A stretch of 64,000 bases of DNA from a virus. Its lineage: Duplodnaviria > Caudoviricetes. Position 1 is the first letter of the stretch. Every line of letters starts with the position of its first letter. Below, piece after piece: positions 19,170-46,167 of the stretch. The position numbers and the translations under genes were made by a program. The stretch lies in the IMG/VR virus record IMGVR_UViG_2645728093_000001, positions 1 to 64,000 of that record; one strand, 5' to 3'. The notes under the pieces are model-generated. The model had not been told where the DNA came from. It searched no databases and was given only the letters and a program-made list of their open reading frames with translations.

Positions 19170-19235
19170 AGCACACAGTGTAGCGACAGGAACGCTACAT
19201 GCCGTGTTGACTATCATCGCTACCTCATGTAGCGA
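19168..19235. promoter_or_regulatory. OR: three operators between cI and cro
   Basis: Perfect TCGCTAC-N5-GTAGCGA at 19217, ACGCTAC-N5-GTGTTGA at 19192, partial site at 19168; TTGACT at 19207. Confidence 0.85.
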
Positions 19236-19245
19236 TTTGGGCATC

Positions 19246-25159: not shown

Positions 25160-25384
25160 ATGGCTGTTGATCATGATGCGCGCGCGCTGGAGCGGGAGCT
25201 TCAGCGCATCTTCGAAAGCCACGGTGTCCCGACCACGGAGATCGAGGGCGTCCATCACGTCGGGCTGTGCTCGACACGCCAGGTCGGTGACAAGGGTGGG
25301 CGCTACGTCCCGAGCATGCCGTCGAAGTCGGCCGCTGTCGCTCTGCCGACGCTGGCCAAGGACATTCTGGAGGCGCTTCGTTGA
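25160..25384 (+). CDS. Hypothetical protein
   Basis: Short coupled ORF. Confidence 0.45.
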   Translation: MAVDHDARALERELQRIFESHGVPTTEIEGVHHVGLCSTRQVGDKGGRYVPSMPSKSAAVALPTLAKDILEALR

Positions 25385-32967: not shown

Positions 32968-33242
32968 CAACCTCTCAATCGCCGCTCCGCGTCCTCAAGG
33001 CCCAGGCCAACAACATGGCCAGGATAATGAAGGCCATCGAGCGCGGCGAGAAGGTGACCGAAGATGTCGGCGGCAAGCTTGCGGCGTCGCTGGCCGTCGG
33101 CGTCGCCAAAGTGGCGATCGCGATGGACGACAAGGTGATCATCCTCGACATCGCATGGTCAACGGTAAAGACCTCAAGCGAGGTCGCGCTCGCCGAGTAT
33201 GTCCTCGGACTCATGCGCGGCTCGCGCGAGACGAAGCACTAA
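32964..33242 (+). CDS. Hypothetical protein
   Basis: Coupled ORF starting MTTSQSPL. Confidence 0.55.
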   Translation: MTTSQSPLRVLKAQANNMARIMKAIERGEKVTEDVGGKLAASLAVGVAKVAIAMDDKVIILDIAWSTVKTSSEVALAEYVLGLMRGSRETKH

Positions 33243-33244
33243 CG

Positions 33245-33589
33245 ATGGCTCGAAATCGCATCCCGACACTGGGCTCCCGTATCGCGACGCTGGATACCCG
33301 CAAGGCCAAGCCGCTGCCGAAGAAGGCCGACCCGCACTATCAGACCGCCGAGCACGAGGAGTGGGCAGAGTTTGTTAAGCGGCGCGCCGGCTATCGCTGC
33401 GAGCACGTCGACGACGGCAAGCGGTGCTGGCGCAGTGCCGAAAAGGGGTACCGGATGTACGCCGACCACATCAAGGACATCAAAGACCGGCCAGATCTCG
33501 CGCTCGATCGCGACAATGGCCGCTGCGCCTGCAGCTCGCACAACGTCCGTGCAGGCATCCAGGCGCGAGCAAACCGCATGAAATCGTAG
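33245..33589 (+). CDS. Packaging-associated HNH nuclease (HK97 gp74-like)
   Basis: HY...EH..W...V..RAGYRC, ADHI..IKDRPDLALD..NG...C.SH. Confidence 0.8.
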   Translation: MARNRIPTLGSRIATLDTRKAKPLPKKADPHYQTAEHEEWAEFVKRRAGYRCEHVDDGKRCWRSAEKGYRMYADHIKDIKDRPDLALDRDNGRCACSSHNVRAGIQARANRMKS

Positions 33590-33595
33590 GGGAGG

Positions 33596-33838
33596 GTGAG
33601 CATGAAGCTGAACGCGCGCGAACTCGAGCTTCAGGCGCTAAGAGTGCGCAGGTACGAGGCGGCGCAGGCCCTCAAGCGCGAGCTCGACGCCAAGGATGCC
33701 GCGGCGGTCGCGCAGGACGCGGCAGCCAAGCCCCCGGCGTCGGCGGCGAAGCCGGCCAAAAAGGCGGCTGCGAAAAGTAGGCGCAGCCGGGCCTCGAGCA
33801 AAATCGGCCGTAGCCGGGGATCTCGCAAGAAGTCGTAG
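33596..33838 (+). CDS. Small basic hypothetical protein
   Basis: GGAGG ribosome site; 3' end runs into the first island repeats. Confidence 0.45.
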   Translation: MSMKLNARELELQALRVRRYEAAQALKRELDAKDAAAVAQDAAAKPPASAAKPAKKAAAKSRRSRASSKIGRSRGSRKKS

Positions 33839-33846
33839 CCGGGGGA

Positions 33847-34056
33847 CTAACGGAGTCGCAGTTCGCGCTCGATCGCCGGTTGACGGTTCATGAGTTCCTG
33901 GACGCAGGGAGGGACGGGATCCTTCCGGCCCAGCGCGGCGCCGGTCGCCACCGCATCTGAGGCGCGGCGCGCAAGCTGCAGCCAACCGAATAGTGCAGCG
34001 GTCGGCATTGCCCGGATTTGGTCGAGATTAGGTGGCGTTGTCGTTGCAGTGAGCAT
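33847..34056 (-). CDS. Hypothetical protein, last gene of the island
   Basis: Stop codon abuts repeat B. Confidence 0.5.
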   Translation of the reverse strand: MLTATTTPPNLDQIRAMPTAALFGWLQLARRASDAVATGAALGRKDPVPPCVQELMNRQPAIERELRLR

Positions 34057-34104
34057 GCGCCGCTGGTGGCAGCAGGACTAGTCCGACAATCAGAGCCAGG
34101 CGCC

Positions 34105-34446
34105 TCATGCCTCTTCCTCGTCGATGTCGGCCGGCATCTGCCGAAGCTTCTGATATGGGAAGGCTCCGAGCTCGGGATGTAGCCGGTCCTCCTCGATCAT
34201 CGCCGCGGCAGCCATTCGCGCCGTTCCCTTCGCCTCCGGGAGCGTCATCAACGTCAGCGCGATCGGCACCCAGGTCGGAATGTCCTGAAGCTTCCCGTCC
34301 GCTCCGCTCCGGCCCCATCGGTTCACGGTGACAAGATTCTGGCACCATATCCTGGCGAAGGCTTTCCGTGTCAGGCCCTGCCGCTCAAGCTCGCGATCGA
34401 AATCCTCGCAGGCGATCTTCTTGTGTCTGAAGCGTGGCGGGGCCAT
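34105..34446 (-). CDS. HTH protein (Aca-like small regulator)
   Basis: EDFDRELERQGLTRKAFARIWCQNLVTVNRWG...IPTWV..AL; strong ribosome site preceded by hairpin A. Confidence 0.7.
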   Translation of the reverse strand: MAPPRFRHKKIACEDFDRELERQGLTRKAFARIWCQNLVTVNRWGRSGADGKLQDIPTWVPIALTLMTLPEAKGTARMAAAAMIEEDRLHPELGAFPYQKLRQMPADIDEEEA

Positions 34447-34568
34447 CACGGTCCTCCTTTTCGGTTGGGCACAGTCGCCCGAAATCGGCCGTAGCCGAGG
34501 GTATGGCGGATAGGTGGAGCGGAGTCGAGTCCGCGCCGGGCCGGCAAAATCGGCCGTAGCCGAGGGGG

Positions 34569-34934
34569 TCAAAGCCCCTTGAGCGGTGACACGAAGGACT
34601 TACCGTCCATCGCGATGGTCGAGATCTCGCCGGGCCCTTCGATCATGCGCAGCCATTCCCCCTCGGATCCGGTGAAGCCTGGCCCGGCCTCGACGTGGTG
34701 CGCGGCCAGCCACTTCGCGAGATCGCGCGCCGAGGCGCAGGGCGGGGAAAGCGGCGTGCCGGCGGTCGTCGTCTCGTAAAGCTGCCAGTGCGTGCAGGCC
34801 TCCGCCGGCCAGGCGGGCATCCGCTGATCGGTTGCCCGCGCCAGCGCGTCGTCCGCCTTGCGCAAGGGGATGTAACGCCGGCCGTTCTTGGGGTGCTGCC
34901 AGTCTGCCGGCACTCGCCTAACCTGCCTGCCCAT
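34569..34934 (-). CDS. Conserved hypothetical phage protein
   Basis: MGRQVRRVPADWQHP...WQLYETTTAGTPLSP...LAKWL. Confidence 0.7.
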   Translation of the reverse strand: MGRQVRRVPADWQHPKNGRRYIPLRKADDALARATDQRMPAWPAEACTHWQLYETTTAGTPLSPPCASARDLAKWLAAHHVEAGPGFTGSEGEWLRMIEGPGEISTIAMDGKSFVSPLKGL

Positions 34935-35212
34935 CAGAATAACGCCCCCTGGGCGGGTGGCGGCTCTGCAGCGGCAGCCAGGCGGCCGAGATGCTCGACC
35001 GTCTCGGCGATGATCCGCTCGCGGTCGTCGTCGACCAGCAGCCAACCATCATCACTGCCGGCGGGATCGTAAACCACGAAGTTGCCGCCCCATTTCGCAT
35101 GCACGCCTTCGGCAACCCGGCGGACGAATGGCGGGACGTCTGTAACCGCTTTGAAGTCGGCCCAAGACGCGATTTTGTAGCCGGCCGTGGCGATGATCTC
35201 CTCGGCGGTCAT
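34934..35212 (-). CDS. Hypothetical protein
   Basis: Coupled ORF. Confidence 0.65.
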   Translation of the reverse strand: MTAEEIIATAGYKIASWADFKAVTDVPPFVRRVAEGVHAKWGGNFVVYDPAGSDDGWLLVDDDRERIIAETVEHLGRLAAAAEPPPAQGALF

Positions 35213-35397
35213 GATCCGCCTCCCTCTGCGCGTTCGAGATTGGCCTGAAGGTCCCAGGCCTCATAGATAGCCCGTCGTGCCTCCGTGAGTTTCGCTCGCA
35301 CCTCCGGCAACAGCCGCTTGTCTTCGGCATCGACGACGCGCGCGACGGCGTCCAAAAGTCTATTGTAGACGTCCCAGTGGAATGGATGCTTCCGCAT
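35209..35397 (-). CDS. Hypothetical protein
   Basis: GAGGAG ribosome site; starts MRKHPFHW. Confidence 0.6.
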   Translation of the reverse strand: MRKHPFHWDVYNRLLDAVARVVDAEDKRLLPEVRAKLTEARRAIYEAWDLQANLERAEGGGS

Positions 35398-35460
35398 GCG
35401 GGATACTCCTCTCAAAAATCAGTCGTAGGGAAGGGGTGACGAAGTAGGCGCAGCCGGGGC

Positions 35461-35838
35461 TCAAATAAACCTGCCGCAATCGATGCACCGGCCGCGTCCG
35501 TCGTCGCGGTGCCGGCACGGCTTGAACGCTTCCGCCTCTGTGTCCGACCAAGCCCGCTCGGTTTCCGTGGCGATGTCCCAGCGCCCGCAGAACGAGGCGA
35601 GGTAAGCGCGCTGCTCTTCCGTCAGTTTTTCGTCGTGCAAGTGCTCGTCGGCGCTCCCCAGGTTGAGGCCTTGCTCCTGATTCCAGCGTGCATATTCCCG
35701 GATGAGCAGATTAATCGGGCCGTCGTCATTGCCTGGCAATTGCTCCGGTGCCGGCTTGGCATTGGCGCCGCCGAGCGCTTCGATGATGCCGGCGCGCGCG
35801 CCTTCGATTGGTCCGGAAAGCTTCTTGTTGTCGGTCAT
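35461..35838 (-). CDS. Hypothetical protein (C-terminal Cys motif)
   Basis: AAGGAGGA ribosome site; flanked by B repeats. Confidence 0.65.
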   Translation of the reverse strand: MTDNKKLSGPIEGARAGIIEALGGANAKPAPEQLPGNDDGPINLLIREYARWNQEQGLNLGSADEHLHDEKLTEEQRAYLASFCGRWDIATETERAWSDTEAEAFKPCRHRDDGRGRCIDCGRFI

Positions 35839-35897
35839 GGTCGGAATCCTCCTTTTGCAAAATTGGCCGTAGGCGAGGGGAAGGCGCAGCCGGGGGA

Positions 35898-37844
35898 TTA
35901 TCCCGGCGGCCCCTCGATCACGAGCAAGGCGGTATTCACGGAGGTCCCAGCATGCTTAAACGATCCCGCCGGGAGGTCGCGCCACTCCGAGGCAATCGGC
36001 ATCAGCTTGTCCCGCTGGCGCGGACCGTTGGCGCAGATCGCGACGAGCCGGCCGCCAGGTTTCAAAAATTTGCGGGCGTGCTCGATATGCTGGATGTCCG
36101 CGCCGCGCTCGAACGGCGGGTTCATGATGATGCGGTCGAACTTATCGACCGCGCCGGCCATGTCCATGAAATCAGCATTGATGATGGTCACGCCCTGCTG
36201 TGATCGGCCGAGAGTTTGCGCAACCTGGTGATTGATCTCAATCGCCACGATGTCGAGCGACCCGGCGCCATGGACGCGCGCGGCCTCGATGAGCGCACCC
36301 GTTCCCGCGCTTGGCTCCAAGATGCGATGGCCAGGCCTGATGTCGGCCAACTCTGCAACCTCGGCCGCGAGTTCGGGCGAAGTCGGGAAGAGTTGCGGCG
36401 CAACCACGACTTGCACGCCGCCGCCTTTCAGCATGGCCCGCATTGCCTCAAAATCAGCCGTAGGCGAGGCCGCCGGCAAATCGGCCGTAGCCGGGAGGGA
36501 GTCGAGCGCATCGACCAAGACGGGGCGCGGTGCAGGCGCAACCGGGGCCAGGGTAGCAGCTGGCTCGGCCGTTTCCTGCGGCTCGCCCATGATCTCCGAA
36601 ACCAGCGAAAGCGCGGCATCGAGATCGGCGTCCGGCGTCGCGACGTTCTCGCGGACGAATTCCGCCGGGCTTTGCGGTTGGCCGTGATCCTTGCTGTCAG
36701 TCAGATAGACCGCGACCAAAGAATGCTTGACCATAGCTGTGCGGAAGCGGTGCGACTTGTCCGCGCTCCACCGCGCGCCCTTATAGTCTTTGTTGATGCG
36801 CGCATATTCAGCCTTGGTCATATCGACTTGCGGATAGGTGGTGGTCCGGCCGCGGTCGTACATATTCGTTGTCGTGATTTCTCCGCCAGGGGCGCGATAA
36901 TTCAACAACGGCGGGAGTTCGCGACGCGGTTTCGGTGCCAGCAAGCCGGACGCGCCGGCCTCATCCAACATTGCGCGTTCATAGGCCAAGCGGTTTTCAA
37001 AATGCTCAATCCAGCGATCTTGATGAGGAATCGCGCGCTCATAACCCGGGATGGCGATGGCGGCGGCTTGCGCGGCGGTTATGACGTTACCGTCAATCGC
37101 TGACCAAAGCCCCATGGGGCCTTCATACTGCGAAGCGGGCGGGTCGCGCGGATAGTCGGCGAGCGGGAATGACATTGACCAATAGCCGCCCGCATTTGCA
37201 ACGGTTAGCCCGACCGCGCGCTGCTTCTCAGCATCATTGATGCCGGCCACGATTTGCCATGCCTTGATTTGCTTTTCGGCATTAGCCTTGCTGCGCTCGA
37301 CCTTGCGCTTTTCCGCCTCAATGGTCTTGATGCGACGCGCGCGCACTTCGGGGAGTTCTTTGTATTTCGCATGTGCCAGAGCGCCGGCGGCGCGCCCGGT
37401 CCAATATTGCGACGTCCGCCACATCTGCACGGCTTTGCGCATGCCGGCGTCAATCTTCTCCTTGTCGCGGCGTGCATGCTTCTCCGAATGGTGCCCGACG
37501 AGGATCGGCCGACCAAACGGGATATTGTCCGCGATCTCGGCAACGGCTTTGCGCGCGCGTTCCGCGTCGGCCATGCGCTTTTCGCTGTAGTCCTCAAAGC
37601 GCTCGGCGCGCTGCTCGGCGCGATCGACCAGGCTTGTATCCTCGTCACCGATCTCGCCGCAGAGCTCAATCAGCAAATCCTCGGCGGCCGGCGACCAGGA
37701 CGGCTTGACGAAGAGTTCCTGTTTCGGTGCCCATTTGAAGCCGAGCGCCTCGACGCGTGCATAGGTCTCGGCGTCCAAGCGCTGCGAGGCGTACAGGCGC
37801 AGCTTGTTGTCATCGGGCGAGTAAGTGGCGGAATAGGTGGTCAT
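35898..37844 (-). CDS. DUF3560 domain protein fused to an adenine methyltransferase domain
   Basis: ATYSPDDNKLRLY, IPFGRPILVGHHSEKHARRD; C-terminal FPTS, ILEPSAGTG, MNPPF. Confidence 0.88.
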   Translation of the reverse strand: MTTYSATYSPDDNKLRLYASQRLDAETYARVEALGFKWAPKQELFVKPSWSPAAEDLLIELCGEIGDEDTSLVDRAEQRAERFEDYSEKRMADAERARKAVAEIADNIPFGRPILVGHHSEKHARRDKEKIDAGMRKAVQMWRTSQYWTGRAAGALAHAKYKELPEVRARRIKTIEAEKRKVERSKANAEKQIKAWQIVAGINDAEKQRAVGLTVANAGGYWSMSFPLADYPRDPPASQYEGPMGLWSAIDGNVITAAQAAAIAIPGYERAIPHQDRWIEHFENRLAYERAMLDEAGASGLLAPKPRRELPPLLNYRAPGGEITTTNMYDRGRTTTYPQVDMTKAEYARINKDYKGARWSADKSHRFRTAMVKHSLVAVYLTDSKDHGQPQSPAEFVRENVATPDADLDAALSLVSEIMGEPQETAEPAATLAPVAPAPRPVLVDALDSLPATADLPAASPTADFEAMRAMLKGGGVQVVVAPQLFPTSPELAAEVAELADIRPGHRILEPSAGTGALIEAARVHGAGSLDIVAIEINHQVAQTLGRSQQGVTIINADFMDMAGAVDKFDRIIMNPPFERGADIQHIEHARKFLKPGGRLVAICANGPRQRDKLMPIASEWRDLPAGSFKHAGTSVNTALLVIEGPPG

Positions 37845-37948
37845 GCTCGAAAGCTCCTTTCAGATTGCGCACAATCGCGCGGGGATGCGGTTCATAGGGG
37901 GCCCGCTGAATCTCGTCAACGGGAAAATCAGTCGTAGCCGAGGGGAAA

Positions 37949-38131
37949 TCAATCGTAGCCGGGAGGGCGCAACTCCGGGTGCACTCGGTAGAGCATCGCA
38001 TAGGCGGCATCGCGCGACCGGTGCGCGGAAGTACCGAGCTTGGTGATACTGAGCCAGTCGCCGGCCCATCGCCCGGGGACTTCACTGGCGAGACAGACGC
38101 GCGGTTTGTTGGCCTTGCTTTTCTTTGCCAT
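37949..38131 (-). CDS. Small hypothetical protein
   Basis: Starts MAKKSKANK; 3' end overlaps repeat B. Confidence 0.45.
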   Translation of the reverse strand: MAKKSKANKPRVCLASEVPGRWAGDWLSITKLGTSAHRSRDAAYAMLYRVHPELRPPGYD

Positions 38132-38250
38132 GTGATCAGGCCTGGATTTCGTGGCTTTCGATGATGCAGGCACCATCGAAGGATTCTTCCCAAAGGGCGG
38201 AGATAGCCTCAGCGCCCAACGTGTCGAGATTGTCGGGCATCGGCTTAGCC

Positions 38251-38964
38251 TTATAGCCAGTCCGCAGCCTCGCGCGCGGCGGCGAGCGCTTTGGCTTCCG
38301 TCGCAAAGGCCTCCGTGCCAATCCCCATGTTGTCGCCGTCGGTTGTCAGCGTCCAAACCGTCACGCCGGAAGGCGCAACCGAGGGGGCCGCGGCGCCAGG
38401 CGGGAGCAAAGCGGCATACGCCTTGATCGCGCTCGCGACGGCATCCGCGGCGCGCGCCAATGCCTCGTTTTGCGTGCCGTCGTCGGTCGTCATTTCCGCC
38501 CGCATGGCGTCGCGGTGCGTCTCGGCGATGGATTCCCATGAAGGCGCAGCCGGGGGAGTGTGCGCCTTGAGACGATCCGCGAGCGCTTCCCAGCGCGGAA
38601 TCCATGCGCCGTCTGCAGCCGCGCGCGCGTGGCGGAGGCTGGATTCTACCGCCATCAACAAATGCTGACGTTCCGGCTCGGTGAGCGGCGAAGCGGCATC
38701 GGGCGCCGGCATGGGCCGCAGTGCCTCGCCTTCAAGGCTGATAGAGTCCTCCGGCCATTCCGTGCCGTCATGAGCGACGAAAAGCGATTTCCCGCGCGCG
38801 TCCGTCGTTGTGTGCTGGCCGTCCCAGCACACTTTGGTTTCGTCCATGTGGTTGAATTCGAGCGACCCGTCAGGATTTCGGCCTGTGATCTCGCACCAGG
38901 CGTTGCCGGGGATGAGATCGGCGGTTGCAACGATCTCGCTGCCGGTCGGTGAAAATGCTTTCAT
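38251..38964 (-). CDS. Hypothetical protein
   Basis: Hairpin A and ribosome site precede MKAFSPTG. Confidence 0.7.
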   Translation of the reverse strand: MKAFSPTGSEIVATADLIPGNAWCEITGRNPDGSLEFNHMDETKVCWDGQHTTTDARGKSLFVAHDGTEWPEDSISLEGEALRPMPAPDAASPLTEPERQHLLMAVESSLRHARAAADGAWIPRWEALADRLKAHTPPAAPSWESIAETHRDAMRAEMTTDDGTQNEALARAADAVASAIKAYAALLPPGAAAPSVAPSGVTVWTLTTDGDNMGIGTEAFATEAKALAAAREAADWL

Positions 38965-39066
38965 GATGTTTCGTCCTTTCGCTTTGCGCACTATCGCGCG
39001 TCGGGAAATCAGCTGCAGCCGGGGCTGCGGGTCATCAACGGGAAATCGGCCGTAGCCGAGGGGCGG

Positions 39067-39345
39067 CTAGAGATTCACCTCGTGAAAGCCGGACGCGCCA
39101 GGAAGCTTTTTGAAACCAGGCGGGGAGCGATCGCGGCGGCCGATCCGCATTGACACAACGGCCGGCTTTCCGGTTGCCGCGACGTCGGCGCGGTAAGTCT
39201 CGAATTCGCGCGCGGCGTCCGCGGCGCGCTGTATTTCGACGGTGCGGCCGGGGAACGGCAGCGCGTCGCCGGACAAGCAAAGATGAACCGAAACGAAAGC
39301 GCCGTTACGCTCGGCCGGATAGCTGCTCAGGATCAATTTAGCCAT
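39067..39345 (-). CDS. Hypothetical protein
   Basis: Hairpin A and ribosome site upstream; stop abuts repeat B. Confidence 0.7.
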   Translation of the reverse strand: MAKLILSSYPAERNGAFVSVHLCLSGDALPFPGRTVEIQRAADAAREFETYRADVAATGKPAVVSMRIGRRDRSPPGFKKLPGASGFHEVNL

Positions 39346-39429
39346 TGGGTTAGCTCCTTTCATGGTGCGCACGATTGCGCGTGAAATCGGCCGTAGCCGA
39401 GGGGTTGAGGAAATCAGACGTAGCCGGGA

Positions 39430-39843
39430 CTAGGCCGCCGCGGCGCGCTCCGCCGGCAACTCTTTGGTTTGCGCGACGTCGAAAACCGGGACCATGACGA
39501 AACGGACGGTTGGCGCCTCGGCCGCCTCCGCCGCGCCGGCTTCATTGCTCGGCGCCGAGGCCTCGGCCTTCCGCGCGCCAGTCGGCGCAAAGATGTAAAG
39601 CGCGCTTTGACCTTCCTGGACAACGCGACCGGCCGCAATCCATTGCTGGAAGCCGCCGACCATGGTTGCGGTCTGGCATTGCAGCGCGGCCAAAAGTTGA
39701 TTGTTGCCGGACAACGCGCTGCCGTCGATTGTCAGGATCGGGACGCGCGCCAGCCATTGCGCCTTTTGTTCATCCGTCATGTTGGCAATCTGTTGCGCCA
39801 ACTGGCGCGCCTTTTCTTTGTTCGGGTTCTCTTTCTTCCGCAT
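39430..39843 (-). CDS. ArdC N-terminal-like ssDNA-binding protein (anti-restriction associated)
   Basis: S.NNQLL...Q...AT.VGGFQQWIAAGRVVQEGQSALYIFAP...F..VPVFDVAQT. Confidence 0.75.
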   Translation of the reverse strand: MRKKENPNKEKARQLAQQIANMTDEQKAQWLARVPILTIDGSALSGNNQLLAALQCQTATMVGGFQQWIAAGRVVQEGQSALYIFAPTGARKAEASAPSNEAGAAEAAEAPTVRFVMVPVFDVAQTKELPAERAAAA

Positions 39844-39898
39844 GTCGTTTGCTCCTTTCGATTTGCGCACAATCGCGCGATGGAAACGGCCGCGCCGA

Positions 39899-40096
39899 TT
39901 ACTTCCAGGCCTTTGCGATGCGAAGTCCGCCGCCGTCGATAACGTCGCGGGGTTCAAGGCTGGCCAATCCCTCGGCCTCGAATTCGCGCGCCGCGGTTTC
40001 AAACCTATGGCCAGGGTAAAGCAAGACTCCGCCCGGCGCGGCTTGCTTCAATGCGCCAAACAACGCGTTACGTTCTTTAATCGAGGCCTTCCGCAT
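39899..40096 (-). CDS. Small hypothetical protein
   Basis: AAGGA ribosome site following repeat B. Confidence 0.55.
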   Translation of the reverse strand: MRKASIKERNALFGALKQAAPGGVLLYPGHRFETAAREFEAEGLASLEPRDVIDGGGLRIAKAWK

Positions 40097-40158
40097 TTCT
40101 TATCCTTCCGAAATTGGCCGTAGCCGAGGGGGACGCAAAATCAGCCGTAGCCGAGGGG

Positions 40159-41220
40159 TTAGGCCGAGGCGCCAAATCGAGGCGCAACCGGGAGGCGCGC
40201 GATCGGCGCGCCGAGCGATGTTGACGCGAGAAAGCGCGCGGCCAGGCGAGGCGCCGCGGAACGCGCGGCCGGCGCGACGTCCGCCGCGGCCGGTTGCTCG
40301 GCCCGCGCCTCGGCCGCCGTTACCAGCCGGAGGCGCGGCGCCTCGGCCTCGGCCGCCGCAATCCGCGCGCGGCGCCTTTCGAGATAGGCCGCGACCCGCG
40401 CGGCCTTTGCCTCGGCCTTTGCGGCCGCCTCGGCTTGCCGGCGCGCCTCGGCCTCGGCTTTATCGATGGCACGGCGCCGCGCGCCAATCTCAAAATTGCA
40501 CATGCCGGAAAGCCGGAGGCGGCAATCCTCAACCGTTGCCGCCAGCTCGGCCGCGGGGGTTTCATCTGCGCCGGATTGCTCGGCCTCGGCCATCGCGATT
40601 CGGTAATGAACCCGCCAGAATTCGGCGCGCGTTACGGCACCGTCCGGCGCCTTCTCAGGTATTGCCTCGGCCTCGGCCGCAAGCGCGGTTGCGTCGAATG
40701 TGCCGCGGCGCGCCTCGGCCGTCCGTTCGCTGCAATCGGTAGCGTCGAATTCGGCGCCGTTGTCGCACGCGATGGAAGCGATTGCAGGGATTGTGACGAT
40801 ATCGGAATCAGCGGAAAAGGCGCCGGCCGTCCGAGCAATGCGCGCGCGGTAATAAGCGAAAGCAATCCGGAGGCCTCGGCCAATGTTTAGCGGCTTGCCA
40901 GGCAATGAAACGGCCGGCGCGCGGACAACGGCGCCGCATGCGAACGTGACAGTAAGCACGGGCGATTTACCAAGCCGCCGGCCGTTCGCGGATTGCGGAA
41001 TGGCATAATCGGCCCATGGTGCGAAACGGCTTTCCGGCGCCTCGGCCGAGGCTTTGGGCGCGGCTTTGGTGGCAGGGATAGCCAATCGCAGCAAATCCGC
41101 AACGGCGCGCCAGTTAGCCGCGCCAGGATCCTGACAAGCATTGTCATAGGCGAGAATGGCCAGGCCTTTACGTTCGGAGGCTTTCGCCGCGCGCGCGGCC
41201 GTCAAATCAATCTGATGCAT
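40159..41220 (-). CDS. Ala-rich hypothetical protein (353 aa)
   Basis: Hairpin A and ribosome site precede MHQIDL; stop abuts repeat B. Confidence 0.7.
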   Translation of the reverse strand: MHQIDLTAARAAKASERKGLAILAYDNACQDPGAANWRAVADLLRLAIPATKAAPKASAEAPESRFAPWADYAIPQSANGRRLGKSPVLTVTFACGAVVRAPAVSLPGKPLNIGRGLRIAFAYYRARIARTAGAFSADSDIVTIPAIASIACDNGAEFDATDCSERTAEARRGTFDATALAAEAEAIPEKAPDGAVTRAEFWRVHYRIAMAEAEQSGADETPAAELAATVEDCRLRLSGMCNFEIGARRRAIDKAEAEARRQAEAAAKAEAKAARVAAYLERRRARIAAAEAEAPRLRLVTAAEARAEQPAAADVAPAARSAAPRLAARFLASTSLGAPIARLPVAPRFGASA

Positions 41221-41287
41221 GGGAAACGTTCCTTTCGAGTTGCGCACAATCGCGCCGGTTGGATTGCTCGGCCGAGGCCGAGGCGGA

Positions 41288-41587
41288 TTAGCTCTGTAGT
41301 TTGGCCAGGCGCCGCGCGTCGATTGCGGCGCGAATCTCTTTCTTGAACCGGCCGGCATATTGGCCATGAAACGTGCGGGACGTTGCTACCGCGCGATCTA
41401 GCGCAAGCTTTGCGGTCCGGTAGCGCGGCGCGAATTTGATAGCATCGGGGGTCAATCCCATTGCACCGCGCGCGGGAATTCCGAGCTCGGCCGCCAATGT
41501 GTCCCGGATTGCGTCATGGCATGCCGTTGCGTCGCGCAAGGCTTGCTCTAGTGTGGCCGAGGCGGCTTGATACTCTGCAAACGTCAT
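41288..41587 (-). CDS. Hypothetical protein
   Basis: GAGGGG ribosome site; G.MGLTPDAIK motif. Confidence 0.65.
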   Translation of the reverse strand: MTFAEYQAASATLEQALRDATACHDAIRDTLAAELGIPARGAMGLTPDAIKFAPRYRTAKLALDRAVATSRTFHGQYAGRFKKEIRAAIDARRLAKLQS

Positions 41588-41601
41588 TGCCTGGTTTCCC
41601 C

Positions 41602-41940
41602 TCAATAGCCGGCCGCCTCGGCCGCATAATCCCGCTGGCCAGTTTCGCCCGGTTGCCAATCGGGAAACCGCGCGCCGTTTTCCGTATCGTCATAACCGGC
41701 CGCCAATCGGTCCGCGGGACAATGGCAGCTGCCATGCTGGGTTAGCCGGCCGTCACAATCGGCGCCGTCTTTGCACCAATCGTTGACAACGGTCCGCCCG
41801 TCGAATGAAAACGCATTGCTTTCGCGGTGCCATCCTTCGTCCGTGCGGCCGCCGTGCGAATGGTGCAAGGTCTGGCCGGACCGAATCTTGATCTTGACCA
41901 ATCCAGACTTGTGATAATGCCAGAAGCGCGCGGTTTGCAT
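41602..41940 (-). CDS. Hypothetical protein
   Basis: GAAAGGA ribosome site; TDEGW...DCDG...QRDYAAEAAGY. Confidence 0.7.
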   Translation of the reverse strand: MQTARFWHYHKSGLVKIKIRSGQTLHHSHGGRTDEGWHRESNAFSFDGRTVVNDWCKDGADCDGRLTQHGSCHCPADRLAAGYDDTENGARFPDWQPGETGQRDYAAEAAGY

Positions 41941-41954
41941 GCGGCGGTATCCTT

Positions 41955-42296
41955 TCAAGGTAATGCGTTGAAATTGGTCCGATAGGTCGCGGCTTCCAAG
42001 ACGCAACGTCGCGCGGCTTCCAGATTGATAACGCGCCCCATGGGATAGCGTTGCGCGGTCCGCCTATATTCCGCCGCCCATGCCAAAGCGTCCACCGCCA
42101 ACGCGCGCCTAGGCCGCTCAGAAAGGCGAGATGTACGGAGGTAGTAGCGCGGCATGCGGCCGGGCGGACGTTCTGCCGTAATGATAAAGCGGACTCCGCC
42201 CGCAACGAAGTCGCGGCCGATTCCGTACTGTTGAACGGCCGCGCGGGTTTCCGCTCGCAAGCCTTGCATCAGTTTCCGATAAGCCGCGCGATTCAT
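41955..42296 (-). CDS. Hypothetical protein
   Basis: ATGA-coupled to the upstream gene. Confidence 0.6.
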   Translation of the reverse strand: MNRAAYRKLMQGLRAETRAAVQQYGIGRDFVAGGVRFIITAERPPGRMPRYYLRTSRLSERPRRALAVDALAWAAEYRRTAQRYPMGRVINLEAARRCVLEAATYRTNFNALP

Positions 42297-42691
42297 GCCG
42301 CTTGCTCCATTTCGCAAACCGGAGTCCAACCCGTGGCCACGTCATAAGAGGCCGCGCGCGCGATCATGGGCGGCCGGCGCAATTCATCGTCCGCCGCAAT
42401 TATGCCGTAGCGTTCCGGCGCCGCGTCAAGTTTGGCCATTTGCGCCATGTGCTCGGCCGCGCGCCAGGCATTGAAGGCCGCGACGATATCAGCCGGCAAT
42501 GGATCAATGCTGCGCACAAGCATTCCGATTCCCGTCCGCATGGCGCGGCGGACGTCGTCACCGTTCGCAATCGACAGCTCATAATCCGAGACGCTGTGAC
42601 GGATTGAGGCCTCAAAGGTTTCGGTCGCGGTTGTGACGCGATAGTAAACCGTTCCCATGAATGAGCATTGCCATTTGAAACGTGGAGTCAT
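42293..42691 (-). CDS. Hypothetical protein
   Basis: Hairpin A and ribosome site upstream. Confidence 0.7.
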   Translation of the reverse strand: MTPRFKWQCSFMGTVYYRVTTATETFEASIRHSVSDYELSIANGDDVRRAMRTGIGMLVRSIDPLPADIVAAFNAWRAAEHMAQMAKLDAAPERYGIIAADDELRRPPMIARAASYDVATGWTPVCEMEQAA

Positions 42692-42728
42692 GGTCTAGCC
42701 TTTCGAGTTGCGCACAATCGCGCGGGTT

Positions 42729-42971
42729 CTATTCGGAAAAATACGGTTTGCGGTCCCCAGCCTTGCGCGCCTCGGCCTTCGTTCTATTGTCAAGCCTTCC
42801 TTCGCACGCGCAAAGATGCATTAGGCAAGCGCCGAGTTCCGACGCGGCGTCACCGTAGTTAAGCCCGCGCTTTATTTGCTTTCCATACTGGACCGTGAAT
42901 TGGTCGAATCCGGTTTGGATCAATCGAACGGGGAAGCCGGAGGAAAGCTCTTCAAAGCAAACATTTCGCAT
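42729..42971 (-). CDS. Hypothetical protein
   Basis: GGAGG ribosome site; FTVQYGKQ...L.Y..AA.ELG.C.MH motif. Confidence 0.7.
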   Translation of the reverse strand: MRNVCFEELSSGFPVRLIQTGFDQFTVQYGKQIKRGLNYGDAASELGACLMHLCACEGRLDNRTKAEARKAGDRKPYFSE

Positions 42972-42974
42972 GCT

Positions 42975-43172
42975 TTAGCCTCCCGTTGCTTCGTCAAAGC
43001 GCGCGGCTTCAAAATCGCGGCTAGCTTGCTCGGCCTCGGCGCCGGTCAACATGGCGCGGGAGGTAGGATAGTAGAAAACGCGCGTTCCCTTTGGGATGAA
43101 AACCCCTTTCCTATCACTGCCGGGATATTTGGTAATGATCCATCGCGGATCGCCGCCGACATGCTTTCGCAT
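42975..43172 (-). CDS. Hypothetical protein
   Basis: Hairpin A and ribosome site upstream; DPRWI.TKYPG motif. Confidence 0.7.
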   Translation of the reverse strand: MRKHVGGDPRWIITKYPGSDRKGVFIPKGTRVFYYPTSRAMLTGAEAEQASRDFEAARFDEATGG

Positions 43173-43263
43173 TAGGTTTCCTTTCGAGTTGCGCACAATC
43201 GCGCGTTTGGTCCGCCGTGGCGTTCCGTTGTACGGCGCAACGCGGCGCCCCACCGTCGGAACG

Positions 43264-43368
43264 TCAAAGGCAAGAATTCAGAAATGCACGCTTGCCGCTA
43301 CGTGCGACCAATCGGCGAGTCCGCTTATCGTTCGGCTTGCGGTCAGTCTCATGACGGGCATAACGCAT
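43264..43368 (-). CDS. 34-aa basic peptide
   Basis: Hairpin A and ribosome site upstream. Confidence 0.55.
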   Translation of the reverse strand: MRYARHETDRKPNDKRTRRLVARSGKRAFLNSCL

Positions 43369-43461
43369 AGTCGTTTCCTTTCGTGGTTGCGCACAATTGC
43401 GCGGTTTCGGCGGTTTGCCGGCTAAGCCGAGGCGCTGCGGCCTCGGCTTAAACTGCAAACC

Positions 43462-43698
43462 TTAGCTGATACGCTCGCAAGCGCCGTTTTTGGGATTCCA
43501 GCTAATCAACATATCGCCAACCCGGACCGAATAGCCGCGCGACATACGAACGGCGCGCGGTGCGGTCCGGCCGGTTTGCTGCAGCCAACGGCCGCAATCC
43601 CAAGCAATGCCCGATGCACTCGAATGATAGAAAGGATTCCGCGCCTCGGCCGGCGCCTCGAAACCCTGTTTTACCTCGGCCGTCAAATCGGTTGCCAT
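43462..43698 (-). CDS. Hypothetical protein
   Basis: GAGG ribosome site; starts MATDLTAEV. Confidence 0.6.
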   Translation of the reverse strand: MATDLTAEVKQGFEAPAEARNPFYHSSASGIAWDCGRWLQQTGRTAPRAVRMSRGYSVRVGDMLISWNPKNGACERIS

Positions 43699-43708
43699 GG
43701 TCGCGGCC

Positions 43709-43894
43709 TCAAATCGCGATTGCAACGGCAAGGCGCGCGGTGCGGATAGCGTCAATGCGGCGCGCCGGAATGGTGCGATCCGCCGCGGCGATCCGTTCGG
43801 CCAGGCTGATAAGACGGTGCGCGAGGCCGAGGCGGCCGAGCTCGATTGCGTTTGCAGCGTCTAGCAAAAGGCCTTTAACGGTATTGTTTCGCAT
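43709..43894 (-). CDS. Hypothetical protein
   Basis: Hairpin A and ribosome site upstream. Confidence 0.65.
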   Translation of the reverse strand: MRNNTVKGLLLDAANAIELGRLGLAHRLISLAERIAAADRTIPARRIDAIRTARLAVAIAI

Positions 43895-43938
43895 GGTCGT
43901 TTTCCTTCTGAGTTGCGCACAATCGCGCGGGTTGAAAC

Positions 43939-44097
43939 TTAGTAGCGGTTGCGGCGCCGATAGCTCGGCCGGCGCCTCCGGACCGGCGCGCCATATTCGA
44001 CGGCCGCAAGCGCGAGCCAACCGACAACGGCCAGGCCGAAAAGAAACGTTGCCGGCAACATCGGGTTGGCGATGCAAAAGGCGATAAAGGCTTGCAC
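43939..44097 (-). CDS. Small membrane peptide with basic tail
   Basis: GTG start with AAGGG ribosome site; one transmembrane segment. Confidence 0.5.
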   Translation of the reverse strand: MQAFIAFCIANPMLPATFLFGLAVVGWLALAAVEYGAPVRRRRPSYRRRNRY

Positions 44098-44107
44098 GGT
44101 GCGCCCC

Positions 44108-44332
44108 TTAAGCAATCGGCCGCGATTGATCGGCAGAGACTTCGCACAAAACAACGCGATAGAAGGCGCGGGAATTGCGCGGGCGATCTCCGCCGCGAAC
44201 GGCGGAGAAGGCAAGGCGCCGATACATTGCCTCGAAAGCATCAGCCGACGATTTGAGGAAAAGGCGCGCGGTCCAATCGCAACCGGTCAAGGTGCAGCGA
44301 AAGCGGATGTCAAAGGCTTGGCGGCGGGACAT
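44108..44332 (-). CDS. Hypothetical protein, first hairpin-led gene of the island
   Basis: Hairpin A and ribosome site upstream. Confidence 0.6.
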   Translation of the reverse strand: MSRRQAFDIRFRCTLTGCDWTARLFLKSSADAFEAMYRRLAFSAVRGGDRPRNSRAFYRVVLCEVSADQSRPIA

Positions 44333-44379
44333 GTTCGGGCCTTTTCGGTTGCGCACAATCGCGCGTTTCGTGTCCCGCA

Positions 44380-44482
44380 CATGCCTATATCAGCGGCCGG
44401 CCGTCAAGAGGGAAAATGCAATTCAGTGAAAAGAATTTGCGAAAAGCCGGCAACGGCGCCGTTTATGTCACTATCTAGTGAC
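44380..44482 (-). promoter_or_regulatory. Putative island promoter and palindromic operator
   Basis: CTTGACG on minus (44402-44408) with an AT-rich upstream tract, but the -10 match is weak; perfect inverted repeat GTCACTA-TC-TAGTGAC at 44467-44482. Confidence 0.45.
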
Positions 44483-44516
44483 GGCCGAGGCCTCTAGTAG
44501 TTCGGCCGCGGCTGGA

Positions 44517-44828
44517 TCATTCGCGCATTGCCTTATGCACTCGGCCGAGGCGCCGGACGTCCGCCCATGCATCCGCCGCGCCGATACCGGCAAGCACGGC
44601 GCGACATTTAAGGCCTAGCTCGGCCGTCCCGCCGTTCTGCCGTGCAGCTGTGACGGTATTCGGCGAGATGAATAGAACGGCCGCGGCCTCCCCATTGGAA
44701 AGGTCTAACTCGGCTTGCCATGCCTGGAATTCGGCCGCCGTGATTCGCAGTGCGGTGGCGGCCGAGGCATAGGCGCGGGACCGCGCCAGGGTTTTGCCGG
44801 TTGCGTGCTTTCGAGGCTTAGACGTCAT
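44517..44828 (-). CDS. HTH protein (Aca-like small regulator)
   Basis: ITAAEFQAWQAELDLSNGEAAAVLFISPNTV...LKCRAVLAG. Confidence 0.7.
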   Translation of the reverse strand: MTSKPRKHATGKTLARSRAYASAATALRITAAEFQAWQAELDLSNGEAAAVLFISPNTVTAARQNGGTAELGLKCRAVLAGIGAADAWADVRRLGRVHKAMRE

Positions 44829-45057
44829 TGCTTTTCACTCCGCCGTGACTCTTCCCAGGTATCTCAGCCGGCAACTATCACAAATCAGGGAATGGCCGAG
44901 GCCTCGGCTTGCAATCGTCCCCGGGTTTTGCGCGGAACCCGATTTGACAACCGACTCCGCAACTGATTCAGAATAGGCACGGTGATGGATTGTCACTGAA
45001 GCAAGCCCGCCAGGCACAAGCCGCGGCGGGCTTTGTGTTTGGCGGAGGCGCCAGCCC

Positions 45058-45324
45058 ATGGCAGAGCACGACAAGCCCGCCATTCTAACCCGCTATTGGC
45101 AGCCAACAGGCCGAACGCGTATGCGCACCGGATGGTTTGGCTTGCTCGTTATCGAGGTGCTGCAGGAACGCGTTGCCATGGTGGGAAAGCGTTGCGAACA
45201 TCAGGCACGCTGGCGCCGTGCATCGCGTGGCCAGGTCGTAACGTTCGGGCAGGGTAGCACGGTGCGCCCCCATGTCCTCGATACCGTCAACCCGCACCGT
45301 TACGACTTCGTCCGCCGTGGGTGA
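45058..45324 (+). CDS. Hypothetical protein
   Basis: GGAGG ribosome site; TGRTRMRTGWFGLLVIEV motif. Confidence 0.55.
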   Translation: MAEHDKPAILTRYWQPTGRTRMRTGWFGLLVIEVLQERVAMVGKRCEHQARWRRASRGQVVTFGQGSTVRPHVLDTVNPHRYDFVRRG

Positions 45325-45719
45325 TATCGTCGGCTTTAGGCCGGCAGCTGGCCGGCCACATGATCGGCCGGCCTTAGAGCGCGGCGCCGTCGGTAGCGTT
45401 GTGGCACTGCCCGTTATCAGGATTGAGCGGGACGCAACGGCCGACGCATGGGACGGCTTGCCAAGTGACAGCGCCCCGCACCATGCGGCGCTATGGCCAG
45501 AGCAGAGCTAGGCGCCGAGGCCTCGGCGCTTGCCTGCCACGTCAACCCGTCACTACCAGACAACGCTAGCCGTAGAGGCGAGGGATTGCCGCGCGGCGCG
45601 GCGCGCCGGCTTGCCAGGTACCACCATAGCCGCCTCGGCCAGGCCTTAGCATCGCATCAATCGGGCGAAACGAGGCAAAACAGCCCCAAACCCGGCCGTT
45701 TCGCCAGCAAAAGCCGCCC

Positions 45720-45840
45720 ACCACCCCGGGGGGGGTGAATTCCCGGGCAAACCGCGGGGGGCCGACCGCCAGGGGTCTCATTTGGAGATTTTTTTGGGGC
45801 GGCCGAAATTTTGGGCTCTGGCGTCATTTTTGACGATTTC
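45720..45840 (+). other. Probable cos/packaging initiation region
   Basis: G-run...GACCGCC...CTCA...AGATTTTTT pattern resembles non-coding cos regions before HK97-type terminases; lies just upstream of terS. Confidence 0.55.
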
Positions 45841-45858
45841 GAGAAAAACGGGAAATCC

Positions 45859-46167
45859 ATGCGCAGCACCGGTCAGACGAAAGCGATGGTCGAAAAGCTG
45901 CCTGAGACCGGCTCGGTCGTCGTGGTGCATACCGACCCGCTGCGATCGCATGTCCGCGACATGATCCTGACCCTGCGCGGATCCGAGGTGCTTGGACGCA
46001 CTCGGATCGAGGTGATCAAGAACCGCGAGGCTGCGGATCGGTTGGTCGGCCTGCGCGTGCCCGTGTTCGTTGACCACGCCTTCGCCGACCATGTCAGCCG
46101 TGAGACCGCATCTGCGGTTCGGGCTTTGGCCGACGGGACGAACTCGATGTTCCGGAAGGCCGGCTAA
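45859..46167 (+). CDS. Hypothetical protein
   Basis: Starts MRSTGQTKAM; immediately before terS. Confidence 0.55.
   Translation: MRSTGQTKAMVEKLPETGSVVVVHTDPLRSHVRDMILTLRGSEVLGRTRIEVIKNREAADRLVGLRVPVFVDHAFADHVSRETASAVRALADGTNSMFRKAG

Follow-up and report, generated by a model that had tools for sequence, protein, structure and literature searches.

A one-way, two-part intergenic linker in the accessory operon of a temperate phage and its Bradyrhizobium prophage relatives

The genes of the leftward accessory operon in virus record IMGVR_UViG_2645728093_000001 are joined by short, co-oriented repeats that form a two-part linker with an unusually clear grammar. The window analyzed here is the first 64 kb (64,000 nucleotides) of this single-contig record of 80,032 bp. 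One part of the linker is a 21-nt repeat, motif A, whose sense strand is the minus strand and reads CCCCTCGGCTACGGCCGATTT. The other part, motif B (sense CGCGCGATTGTGCGCAA), belongs to a second repeat family that was absent from the original prediction, made from the letters of the window. Across at least 15 related loci, the elements follow in the order of stop codon, motif A (often doubled), optional promoter, motif B, Shine-Dalgarno sequence (SD), and start codon. This linker is real and conserved, and it is a relative of intergenic repeats known from other phages (SAS/ESAS, PeSL, and stoperators). As a tentative explanation, which we hold to be plausible and well short of secure, A and B may together constitute a portable mRNA cassette that lies between cistrons, acts in processing, stability, and the start of translation, and serves as a boundary for recombination as well.

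Motif A was located with a weight matrix built solely from 65 copies of other loci and applied at a threshold of 8 bits. Sixteen copies in the window exceeded this value, and all of them lay on the minus strand, the sense strand of the operon, between 33801 and 40158. The rest of the contig yielded a single 8.0-bit match at 69768, whereas shuffled contigs yielded one to three matches. No copy was found by the same scan of the whole contig at the promoters near 44.4 kb and 37.9 kb or at the CI-like gene (Table 1). A search with the repeat as originally written gave a consistent picture. It returned 10 matches at three or fewer mismatches, in a single orientation, against 0.00 expected from 100 shuffles, and at five or fewer mismatches the whole contig contained 13 matches, all within 33801-40158. 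The claim of a repeat at nine places in one orientation was therefore borne out. Its description as nine pairs was correct in part: seven places hold two scored copies, but two (at 35416 and 35860) hold one scored copy and a decayed partner (GGCGCAGCCGGGG), and at 33.8 kb a third copy is present in decayed form. The eight stop codons said to stand beside the repeats (33847, 34569, 35461, 35898, 37949, 39067, 39430, and 40159) are indeed the ends of minus-strand open reading frames (ORFs), and direct reading showed that the first repeat overlaps the stop codon or begins 0 to 3 nt past it. The ninth pair lies in frame within the gene for a 648-amino-acid (aa) protein.

Near-invariant positions of motif A are C4, U10-A11-C12-G13, and G17-A18-U19-U20-U21. 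The GAUU at positions 17 to 20 is at least 96% conserved and the final U 90% (70 of 78 copies, which were chosen by likeness). This GAUUU is the sole AU-rich stretch of the linker. Where motif A is doubled, the spacer between the direct repeats measures 6, 8, or 4 nt in 22 of 24 distinct pairs.

The grammar of the linker was counted in eight loci set to the sense strand, which contained 58 distinct motif A clusters, 30 single and 28 double. Upstream, the stop codon is followed after 0 to 15 nt by motif A, alone or as a direct pair 0 to 8 nt apart. Among distinct first copies, 38 have the end of an ORF of 40 or more codons no more than 15 nt away; in the commonest layout the stop begins 1 to 3 nt before the motif, with TAG furnishing its first bases. 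Downstream, three continuations were seen: an SD 1 to 9 nt on; motif B 0 to 6 nt on, followed by an SD; or a spacer of about 45 nt containing a sigma-70-like promoter, followed by B and an SD. An SD at +1 to +9 combined with a start codon at +14 to +21 was present in 25 of the 58 clusters, motif B at 0 to 6 nt in nine, and motif B at 40 to 60 nt in another nine. Fifteen clusters had neither SD nor B; these include two with a B variant missed by the pattern, four located in genes, and four that are operon-terminal. The fixed distance of 1 to 9 nt between the last A copy and the SD had not formed part of the original prediction. We also noticed that TAG is the stop codon at 22 of 38 distinct A-adjacent junctions (window, L133 to L136, L004, L008, and L011), compared with 16 of 86 long ORFs of the contig; the junctions are partly orthologous, and the counts are not independent.

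Promoter-like sequences occupy defined places in this layout. The sequence upstream of the first motif B is the probable operon promoter, judged by its likeness to the consensus. The same layout occurs in loci L133 and L135, L134 and L136 have TTGACA/G-N16-TATGGT, and in all five long loci a promoter-like TTGAC(A/G)-N16/17 stands 12 to 13 nt before the first B of the operon. The long gap from A to B with a promoter-like sequence was found at one of the nine A places of the window, and a looser pattern detected similar arrangements in four other loci. Since a stricter scan of 33000-46000 for sigma-70-like sites returned none of these, the promoters are proposed from likeness to the consensus.

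At the distal end of the operon, direct reading showed that the decayed A copy supplies the 5' arm of a hairpin, with a T-run behind it. Within 33755-33795 (minus strand), the GGCTGCG of this copy is complementary to a downstream CGCAGCC, after which comes GCCTTTTTGG. The hairpin and GCCTTTTTGG are a plausible candidate for the intrinsic terminator of the operon. In L133, L135, and L011, similar CCCGGCTGCGCC sequences and T-rich tails come after the last A copy. On the plus strand, an 80-aa ORF (33596-33838) with an SD and a high third-position G+C content runs toward the end of the operon; the antisense of the three terminal A copies encodes its basic C-terminal tail, and we list this ORF as a candidate gene.

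Motif B is present in 11 copies between 34465 and 44365, all co-oriented on the minus strand. Each copy stands 2 to 6 nt upstream of a GAAAGGA-like SD, which is followed by a start codon. The two motifs divide the operon: its promoter-proximal half has B only, and the distal 6.4 kb have A with or without B. The sense strand of B forms a hairpin of the type GCGCR-AUNG-UGCGC. Over 51 distinct copies, 255 of 255 stem cells can pair, and all 51 copies keep the 5-bp hairpin. At the closing position, 31 copies have G-U, 19 have A-U, and one has G-C. G-U pairs are possible on the sense strand alone, which fits a hairpin of RNA (or of the single sense strand). A double change from CG to GC was found in four copies, all of which precede the same conserved gene, and it probably represents one event. 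The copy before the 113-aa gene has a compensatory GGGC...GCCC stem in every locus. Where promoters were seen, B lies 5 to 13 nt past their -10 elements and so would be located at the 5' end of the primary transcripts. A stem kept by compensatory and wobble changes, placed directly before the SD, is what is expected of a stabilizer or insulator hairpin in the 5' untranslated region (5' UTR), and we predict that motif B is a stabilizing 5'-UTR hairpin. No Rfam family was detected at motif A or B, and two sub-threshold matches were located elsewhere in 33000-46000.

In two promoter-proximal linkers (43206-43265 and 43404-43463, minus strand), a stem-loop is found about 22 nt before B. Its stem varies between loci while complementarity is kept, and a conserved A/C-rich single-stranded spacer follows it. 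In the former linker, five of the 15 predicted pairs are changed on both sides among five loci. The latter, also B-only, aligned poorly, and its differing complementary stems were visible by eye. Because one third of the stem-loop pairs (5/15) carry such double changes among the five loci, comparison of the sequences indicates that RNA-type structure is under selection in the linkers of this operon, although motif A itself is not such a structure.

The in-frame A pair provides a view of the linker inside a gene. The segment 36430-36501 (minus strand) is translated as LPATADLPAASPTADF, which links the DUF3560 part of the protein to its methyltransferase domain. In all five long loci, the DUF3560-methyltransferase frame is open across this junction. 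Both in-gene copies were scored in three of the five long loci (the window W, L134, and L136) and in L003, and in all four a GAGG occurs at +1 and an in-frame ATG at +16 after the second copy. Only the 5' copy was scored in L133, L135, L008, and L011; there, GAGG lies at +28 and the start at +43 from this copy, which is an equivalent geometry. The plasmid homologs have a gene junction at the same point. One plasmid has two separate genes that overlap by 4 nt; in another the domains are fused, and the phage proteins have about eight extra residues there, encoded by the repeat. The pair is absent from the two plasmid homologs examined. We infer that it was an ordinary A-A-SD-ATG linker which was later read through, and the internal start may still give rise to a short methyltransferase that stands alone.

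To place the linker among related elements, viral and bacterial sequences were scanned. An exact scan of the viral collection recovered 12 stretches, ten of which have several copies of A and/or B, nearly all in one orientation. The exceptions on the opposite strand were one five-mismatch A match and one three-mismatch palindromic B match, both from the same prophage (L001/L136). In each of 15 related loci, A and B are overwhelmingly co-oriented. The scan of the genome collection gave at least 120 stretches; by our own reckoning, based on the information in the pattern and the size of the collection, about 280 matches to the 18-mer were expected by chance, and single genome matches therefore carry little weight. 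Among the matches listed, five stretches had at least three copies, and all derive from Bradyrhizobium: B. embrapense SEMIA 6208 (two stretches), sp. C9, sp. Ai1a-2, and sp. Leo170. These four Bradyrhizobium genomes, 8.3 to 9.5 Mb in size, contained 18 matches to the 21-mer at three or fewer mismatches. Fifteen of these fell into one cluster of a few kilobases per genome, the remaining three were three-mismatch singles, and the matches of each genome were all on one strand. The reversed pattern gave one match in total across the four genomes. Five provirus records of 105 to 132 kb presented the same prophage-restricted, one-way picture. A family of Bradyrhizobium prophages, represented by at least four named genomes and several provirus records, thus shares the linker.

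These distributions bear on the nature of the repeat. The original prediction would have been undone by a repetitive extragenic palindromic (REP) element spread host-wide in both orientations, and what was found is a prophage-restricted, one-way repeat. We accordingly rejected motif A as a host REP element or bacterial interspersed mosaic element, which would have hundreds of copies across the chromosome, there being one prophage cluster per genome, one strand, and a palindrome that is not kept. Mimicry of CRISPR repeats and repeats like those of type III antitoxins were also rejected, more tentatively: no arrays of the motif were present among the at least 120 loci, and multiple copies occurred solely in Bradyrhizobium prophage loci among the matches listed. 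Orthologous copies of motif A keep position-specific variants across loci whose flanking genes are just 67 to 86% identical, which argues for descent with constraint over homogenization.

The genes between the linkers change while the linkers stay. Between two anchors, the methyltransferase gene and the 113-aa gene, the five loci contain differing sets of gene families, and the anchors and the flanking A clusters are retained. Families 5, 19, 25, 26, and 27 occur in different orders and with different neighbors across the five loci. When the related phages were aligned, breakpoints were enriched near A and B: 95 of 253 BLAST segment ends in the operon fell within 20 nt of either motif, compared with 10% by area. 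These non-independent ends were tallied in both directions, and gene boundaries are a confounding factor. Mosaic junctions also occur without A; in different loci, a stop codon overlapping a start codon makes the join between families 25-26, 19-26, and 25-5. Motif A is consequently not required for exchange. The suggestion that the repeats are cassette-exchange sites is thus supported in part, as a description of an effect, but it does not account for the A-less junctions.

The interpretation that we tentatively prefer, a portable mRNA cassette, can be spelled out as follows. The linker would act in cis on the polycistronic mRNA of the leftward operon (~44.4 to 33.8 kb) of this temperate, Bradyrhizobium-type phage. 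At the 3' end of A, GAUUU would be a place where an RNase E-type enzyme cuts, a U-rich site where ribosomes stand by, or both. According to one study, the RNase E target is a single-stranded, AU-rich segment with a U two bases past the cut, and this preference is kept even in high-GC alphaproteobacteria (PMC6238624). Hairpin-competent A copies and the always-paired B hairpin would sit at or near the ends of the resulting RNAs, where they would stabilize these RNAs and keep the SD clear of upstream pairing, and each swapped-in gene would gain a context-independent start. A sequence-specific factor, encoded by host or phage, would recognize A; such a factor is probable because A reads as a sequence and not as a structure. 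The co-oriented, repeated linkers would also be preferred crossover points, which would help to explain the shuffling of genes among related phages. The position, orientation, grammar, and conservation of the linker, the stem of B, and the restriction to prophages are established. Cutting, stabilization, an effect on translation, and a factor that recognizes A are what we infer beyond them. Of the four functions first suggested for the repeat, among them oriented DNA-entry signals, antitermination or processing is the one toward which the evidence leans, with A lying between stop and next SD on the sense strand, the GAUUU end, hairpin B, and the covarying stem-loops nearby.

Several findings weigh against this interpretation. 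The consensus copy does fold with a UNCG-type loop (UCGGC-UACG-GCCGA, -9.0 kcal/mol, z of -3.3, followed by UUU(U)), as had been proposed from the letters alone. The accompanying remark that several variants break the stem was correct, and broken stems are common to the family at large: over 82 distinct copies, 69.3% of stem cells were paired, compared with 69.9% after shuffling, which gives no covariation support. Double changes affected two pairs, with 2.8 expected. Among 24 distinct pairs, the 5' members hardly fold (mean of -1.8 kcal/mol, compared with -4.8 kcal/mol for the 3' members); the 3' member has more stem pairs than its 5' partner in 14, an equal number in three, and fewer in seven. 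Any structural role of motif A is limited to a subset of copies. Whole linkers are no more stable than shuffled ones (z of -0.27, +1.0, and +0.66). Copies of motif A past the last gene of the operon have no SD downstream. Both motifs are confined to one operon, which a general translation device need not be. The strict conservation of sequence and the pairing of direct repeats equally resemble the site of a DNA-binding protein. Finally, RNA runs that hold the region comprise three soil metatranscriptome runs with shares of 0.06 to 0.14, and contig ends at the repeats are usual assembly behavior that says nothing about where transcripts end or how abundant they are.

With pairing and double changes both at the level of shuffled sequences, motif A is best read as recognized by its sequence, with a hairpin-competent subset of copies beside the SD, as far as comparison of copies can indicate. 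We also considered sequestration of the SD, in which the C-rich 5' end of A would pair with the next SD and be opened by a terminating ribosome. This was rejected; native values were below shuffled ones in just 13 of 44 cases, and little of the SD pairing goes to A. The mean unpaired probability of the SD was 0.45 for native and 0.38 for shuffled sequences, with native equal to or above shuffled in 31 of 44, and this slightly greater openness of the SD speaks for the mRNA cassette. Sigma-54 promoters, IHF, CtrA, GANTC (CcrM/GcrA), and RfaH ops-like sites were discarded for mismatches in spacing or strand, judged by eye against their consensus sequences.

The same features can be explained in other ways. 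Motif A could be a set of DNA sites bound in tandem by a sequence-specific phage or host protein that blocks or tunes transcription of the operon, for example keeping it silent in the lysogen, like a stoperator roadblock. Conservation of sequence instead of structure, the preferred pair spacing of 6, 8, or 4 nt, and the strict orientation relative to transcription would all suit such sites, and two small genes that flank the operon (44828-44517 and 34446-34105) look helix-turn-helix-like by eye, one of them with a weak Xre-like match (E of 0.0095) below the Pfam cut-off. We nevertheless regard this as unlikely. No copy is present at either operon promoter or near the CI-like S24 gene, and the 8.0-bit match at 69768 is the only one elsewhere in the 80 kb. 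The fixed distance of 1 to 9 nt to the SD, and the SD and ATG kept past the in-gene pair, serve no role in a DNA roadblock. The 113-aa candidate had no Pfam match, and its structure model was unusable (mean predicted local distance difference test score, pLDDT, of 55.4). In the strict sense, therefore, the stoperator-like repressor sites of the original prediction did not hold up, the repeat being confined to 6.4 kb and missing from promoters and from the neighborhood of the CI-like gene; some other protein may bind the repeat. A palindrome, GCCGAGGCCTCGGC, was examined as an operator related to A and rejected: it had 13 matches in the window, compared with 1.8 expected, and was absent from the control regions of four related loci. 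It is perfect at 39554-39567, 44895-44908, and 45514-45527, and the 13 matches were obtained at two or fewer mismatches. Two copies fall within the non-coding control region that separates the leftward operon from the late one, and their places are not conserved in the four related loci.

Gene exchange could also be the primary function, with motif A chiefly a recombination device that marks the boundaries of exchangeable cassettes, either by homology, as proposed for the PeSLs of T4-like phages, or through a site-specific enzyme, and with regulation secondary. The differing gene content between A clusters of the five loci, with the same families in varied neighborhoods, accords with this, as does the enrichment of segment ends at the motifs, with its non-independent counts and the confounding gene boundaries, and the A pair of the phage methyltransferase where the plasmid homologs have none. 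It is a rather improbable account, given that several mosaic junctions lack A, that orthologous copies keep their own variants and are not homogenized, and that the repeats are direct, without inverted attC-like cores on direct reading; no recombinase was identified in the operon, most of whose proteins lack a Pfam or PHROG match. Still more doubtful is the idea that A copies are weak intrinsic terminators or attenuators, each a 5-bp UACG hairpin with U3-4, which grade expression along the operon while internal promoters restart it. The fold of the consensus and its U-tract are as such an element requires, one internal promoter-like sequence follows an A pair in the window and has counterparts in four other loci, and a longer hairpin, with a T-run, closes the cluster at the end of the operon. 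As a canonical intrinsic terminator, however, motif A was rejected: one of the 16 copies in the window passes a lenient rule, and 15 sites were counted compared with 15.5 in shuffles. About one third of stem cells are broken without compensation, and most A clusters directly precede an SD with no promoter between. Least probable to us is a small selfish repeat, of the REP type or resembling a miniature inverted-repeat transposable element, that has spread in this prophage lineage without function for the phage. Motif A is short, intergenic, and multi-copy, one pair is an in-frame insertion relative to the plasmid homologs, and some copies have decayed (Table 1). Against this, the repeat keeps to one operon and one orientation, with 3 of 18 matches outside the prophage clusters of the four host genomes, all of them three-mismatch singles; it has a fixed register to stop and SD, and its position-specific variants are kept across loci with flanking genes 67 to 86% identical. 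No RAYT- or IS200-type gene was found among the proteins scanned, which cover part of the genes of the contig.

A more far-reaching version of the mRNA cassette deserves mention as a speculation that we think has little chance of being right in full. The A/B linkers might be the cis-signals of a punctuation system for an array of swappable anti-defense genes. A sequence-specific factor of phage or host would read the A core, C-N5-UACG-N3-GAUUU, on the mRNA and cut or load there, so that each cassette, from whatever source, would be released as its own stabilized message, headed by a hairpin and an SD of standard form. Transfer of cassettes from phage to phage would rely on these signals too, making the array an RNA-level counterpart, in a temperate phage, of the integron cassette array.

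Among described systems, SAS/ESAS, PeSL, and stoperators come nearest to the linker, and two further systems are analogous in function. The early-gene RNase III sites of phage T7 are one-way intercistronic RNA signals in an operon with an anti-restriction gene, and cutting yields separately stabilized mRNAs with end hairpins. Those sites are long imperfect double-stranded hairpins, whereas motif A has at most 5 bp and no covariation, and if the RNA is cut at GAUUU, an enzyme of the RNase E type would do so. The conserved upstream (CUP) repeats in the IncN plasmid pKM101's leading region are one-way units before each of several anti-restriction or accessory genes, and they comprise hundreds of bases with a regulated promoter. 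They share with the A/B linker a single orientation and a related gene set (ArdC-N-like and DUF3560-methyltransferase), but A and B are 17 to 21 nt long and most lack a promoter. The attC sites of integrons are imperfect inverted repeats that fold into a long hairpin and have a cognate IntI integrase. The A pairs, by contrast, are direct repeats, and no attC-like inverted cores (R''/L'', L'/R') were visible in the sequence; no search for an IntI-type integrase was made.

The same behavior is shown by the start-associated sequences (SAS) and extended SAS (ESAS) of Cluster K mycobacteriophages. These are short asymmetric repeats in 11 to 19 or more copies per genome, almost all in one orientation, located immediately upstream of the starts of unrelated gene families and absent from the host genome (PMC3203893). 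According to the same text, about half of the SAS copies have a second upstream repeat element, and a role in translation initiation is suspected (PMC3203893). The SAS is described there as a 13-nt sequence, GGGATAGGAGCCC, found genome-wide directly ahead of start codons and overlapping the ribosome-binding site (PMC3203893), whereas motif A ends 1 to 9 nt before the SD, abuts the preceding stop, is often doubled directly, and occupies one operon; the likeness is in behavior only. ESAS are inverted repeats in that account (PMC3203893) and A pairs are direct, and the hosts are Actinobacteria and Alphaproteobacteria, respectively.

The promoter-early stem-loops (PeSLs) of T4-like phages are likewise small, conserved composite regulatory motifs between the small variable genes, of unknown function, in plastic regions (PMC4122927, PMC2839356). 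They are reported to flank the segments that have been inserted, deleted, or replaced when related phages are compared (PMC4122927), as the segment ends near A and B are (95/253, compared with 10%), although A-less junctions exist. A PeSL is defined as a terminator stem-loop plus an early promoter (PMC4122927); here a promoter-like sequence is present at one of nine A places, and by the terminator scan A does not qualify as a terminator. The structure-conserved part of our linker is B beside the SD, and the phage is temperate and not T4-like. The stoperators of Cluster A mycobacteriophages are asymmetric multi-copy sites in short intergenic gaps near stops, oriented with transcription (PMC9283540, PMC3203893). 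Their sequence is identical to that of the early lytic promoter's operator, the immunity repressor binds them and stops elongation, and their distribution is genome-wide (PMC9283540, PMC3203893). Motif A has no copy at promoters or the CI-like gene; its copies are all on the sense strand (16/16), but all fall in 6.4 kb. No description of these repeats was found in the Bradyrhizobium phage papers that the literature search covered; it did not extend to supplementary files and is not proof of novelty.

Accessory and anti-defense regions of phages have the fastest gene turnover, and little is understood of how a new gene can be plugged in and be expressed right away. In this operon the plug is visible as a two-part linker with a strict grammar, conserved while the genes between linkers change. 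If the processing and translation cassette proves true, it would offer builders of operons in high-GC alphaproteobacteria, agricultural rhizobia among them, a compact part already tested in a host, and it would offer a marker for locating accessory-gene arrays in prophages. It would also be a testable case for the role of the oriented intergenic repeats of phages, SAS/ESAS and the like, which is a long-open question. If A and B are merely repeats kept by descent, the shuffling pattern still documents how these prophages diversified.

The gene layout obtained by profile searches is that of a temperate tailed phage with an alphaproteobacterial host, and the G+C content of the window is 0.60 to 0.66 throughout. 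The positions of the features are collected in Table 1. Most products of the leftward operon have no Pfam or PHROG match. The DNA of the DUF3560-methyltransferase gene matched 3,357 plasmid records, 2,659 of them typed as conjugative, and in one of these plasmids the neighbors of the homologous gene are ssb, DUF932, kleA, and radC, which we take to be a plasmid leading-region set, a label that the plasmid record itself does not carry. With an ArdC-N-like gene and a methyltransferase whose plasmid homologs stand beside these genes, the operon looks like the accessory, anti-restriction-type early region of the phage. Plasmid leading regions are described as anti-defense islands in two reports (PMC11541004, PMC13478746). 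No near-identical DNA was found in the phage collection, and a search at lower stringency returned 29 phage records only, covering 2% of the query, inside the methyltransferase gene.

Table 1. Coordinates of linkers, motifs, promoter-like sequences, and genes in the window
Feature	Coordinates	Strand	Evidence or remark
CI-like protein, S24 peptidase domain	18429-19451	minus	Profile search
Rightward block: GcrA, DnaN-like clamp, C5-cytosine methylase, Toprim primase, DnaB-like helicase	20.9-33.8 kb	plus	Profile search
Leftward operon, about 25 mostly small genes	~44.4 to 33.85 kb	minus	Between the two rightward blocks
Rightward late block: large terminase, portal, protease, major head and tail proteins	from 46.7 kb	plus	Profile search
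Operon-end A cluster	33774-33846	minus	After stop of ORF 34056-33847; copies 33826-33846 (10.6 bits), 33801-33821 (28.2 bits), decayed 33774-33794; weight matrix, direct reading
Conserved 113-aa gene	34446-34105	minus	Anchor gene near distal operon end
Linker before 113-aa gene	34465-34567	minus	A 34547-34567, 44-nt spacer, A 34482-34502, B variant 34465-34481; weight matrix, pattern scan
Motif B variant CGGGCGACTGTGCCCAA before 113-aa gene	34465-34481	minus	Compensatory stem change
Linker past stop 35461	35416-35457	minus	Decayed 35437-35457, A 35416-35436 (22 bits); SD GAGGA 4 nt past A
Linker past stop 35898	35860-35897	minus	Decayed 35881-35897, A 35860-35880; SD AAGGAG 5 nt past A
DUF3560 and N6-type methyltransferase fusion, 648 aa	35898-37844	minus	NPPF motif; profile searches
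In-frame A pair at DUF3560-methyltransferase domain junction	36451-36498	minus	Weight matrix, alignment
Abutting A pair	37925-37966	minus	Stop TGA (37951-37949) within 5' copy
Sigma-70-like promoter TTGACG (37919-37914)-N17-TATGAA (37896-37891)	37891-37919	minus	Between A pair and B, 9 nt before B; looser pattern and direct reading
Linker past stop 39067	39006-39063	minus	Consensus A 39043-39063, 16-nt spacer, weaker A 39006-39026 (18 bits), B 38984-39000
Linker past stop 39430	39384-39431	minus	A 39411-39431 overlapping TAG stop, consensus A 39384-39404, B 39365-39381 2 nt on
ArdC N-terminal-domain-like gene	39430-39843	minus	Pfam E 1e-5; PHROG "anti-restriction"
First A pair of the operon	40111-40158	minus	Directly past TAA of 353-aa gene; SD 3 nt after second copy
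Motif B copies	37865-81, 38984-39000, 39365-81, 39863-79, 41240-56, 42708-24, 43189-205, 43387-403, 43913-29, 44349-65	minus	Pattern scan
B-only linker with upstream stem-loop	43206-43265	minus	Predicted pairs changed on both sides among five loci
Candidate operon promoter TTGACG (44407-44402)-N17-GCATGT (44384-44379)	44379-44407	minus	13 nt before first B; consensus likeness

Between the two divergent operons, the non-coding segment 45000-45111 (plus strand) gave a sub-threshold Rfam match to the Burkholderia small RNA candidate Bp2_287 (29.4 bits, compared with a gathering score of 70; E of 0.0023). On the plus strand, the phage encodes a GcrA-like cell-cycle regulator (20905-21588), a DnaN-like sliding clamp (24027-25154), and a 644-aa C5-cytosine methylase (25381-27315), the last of these additional to the N6-type methyltransferase of the leftward operon.

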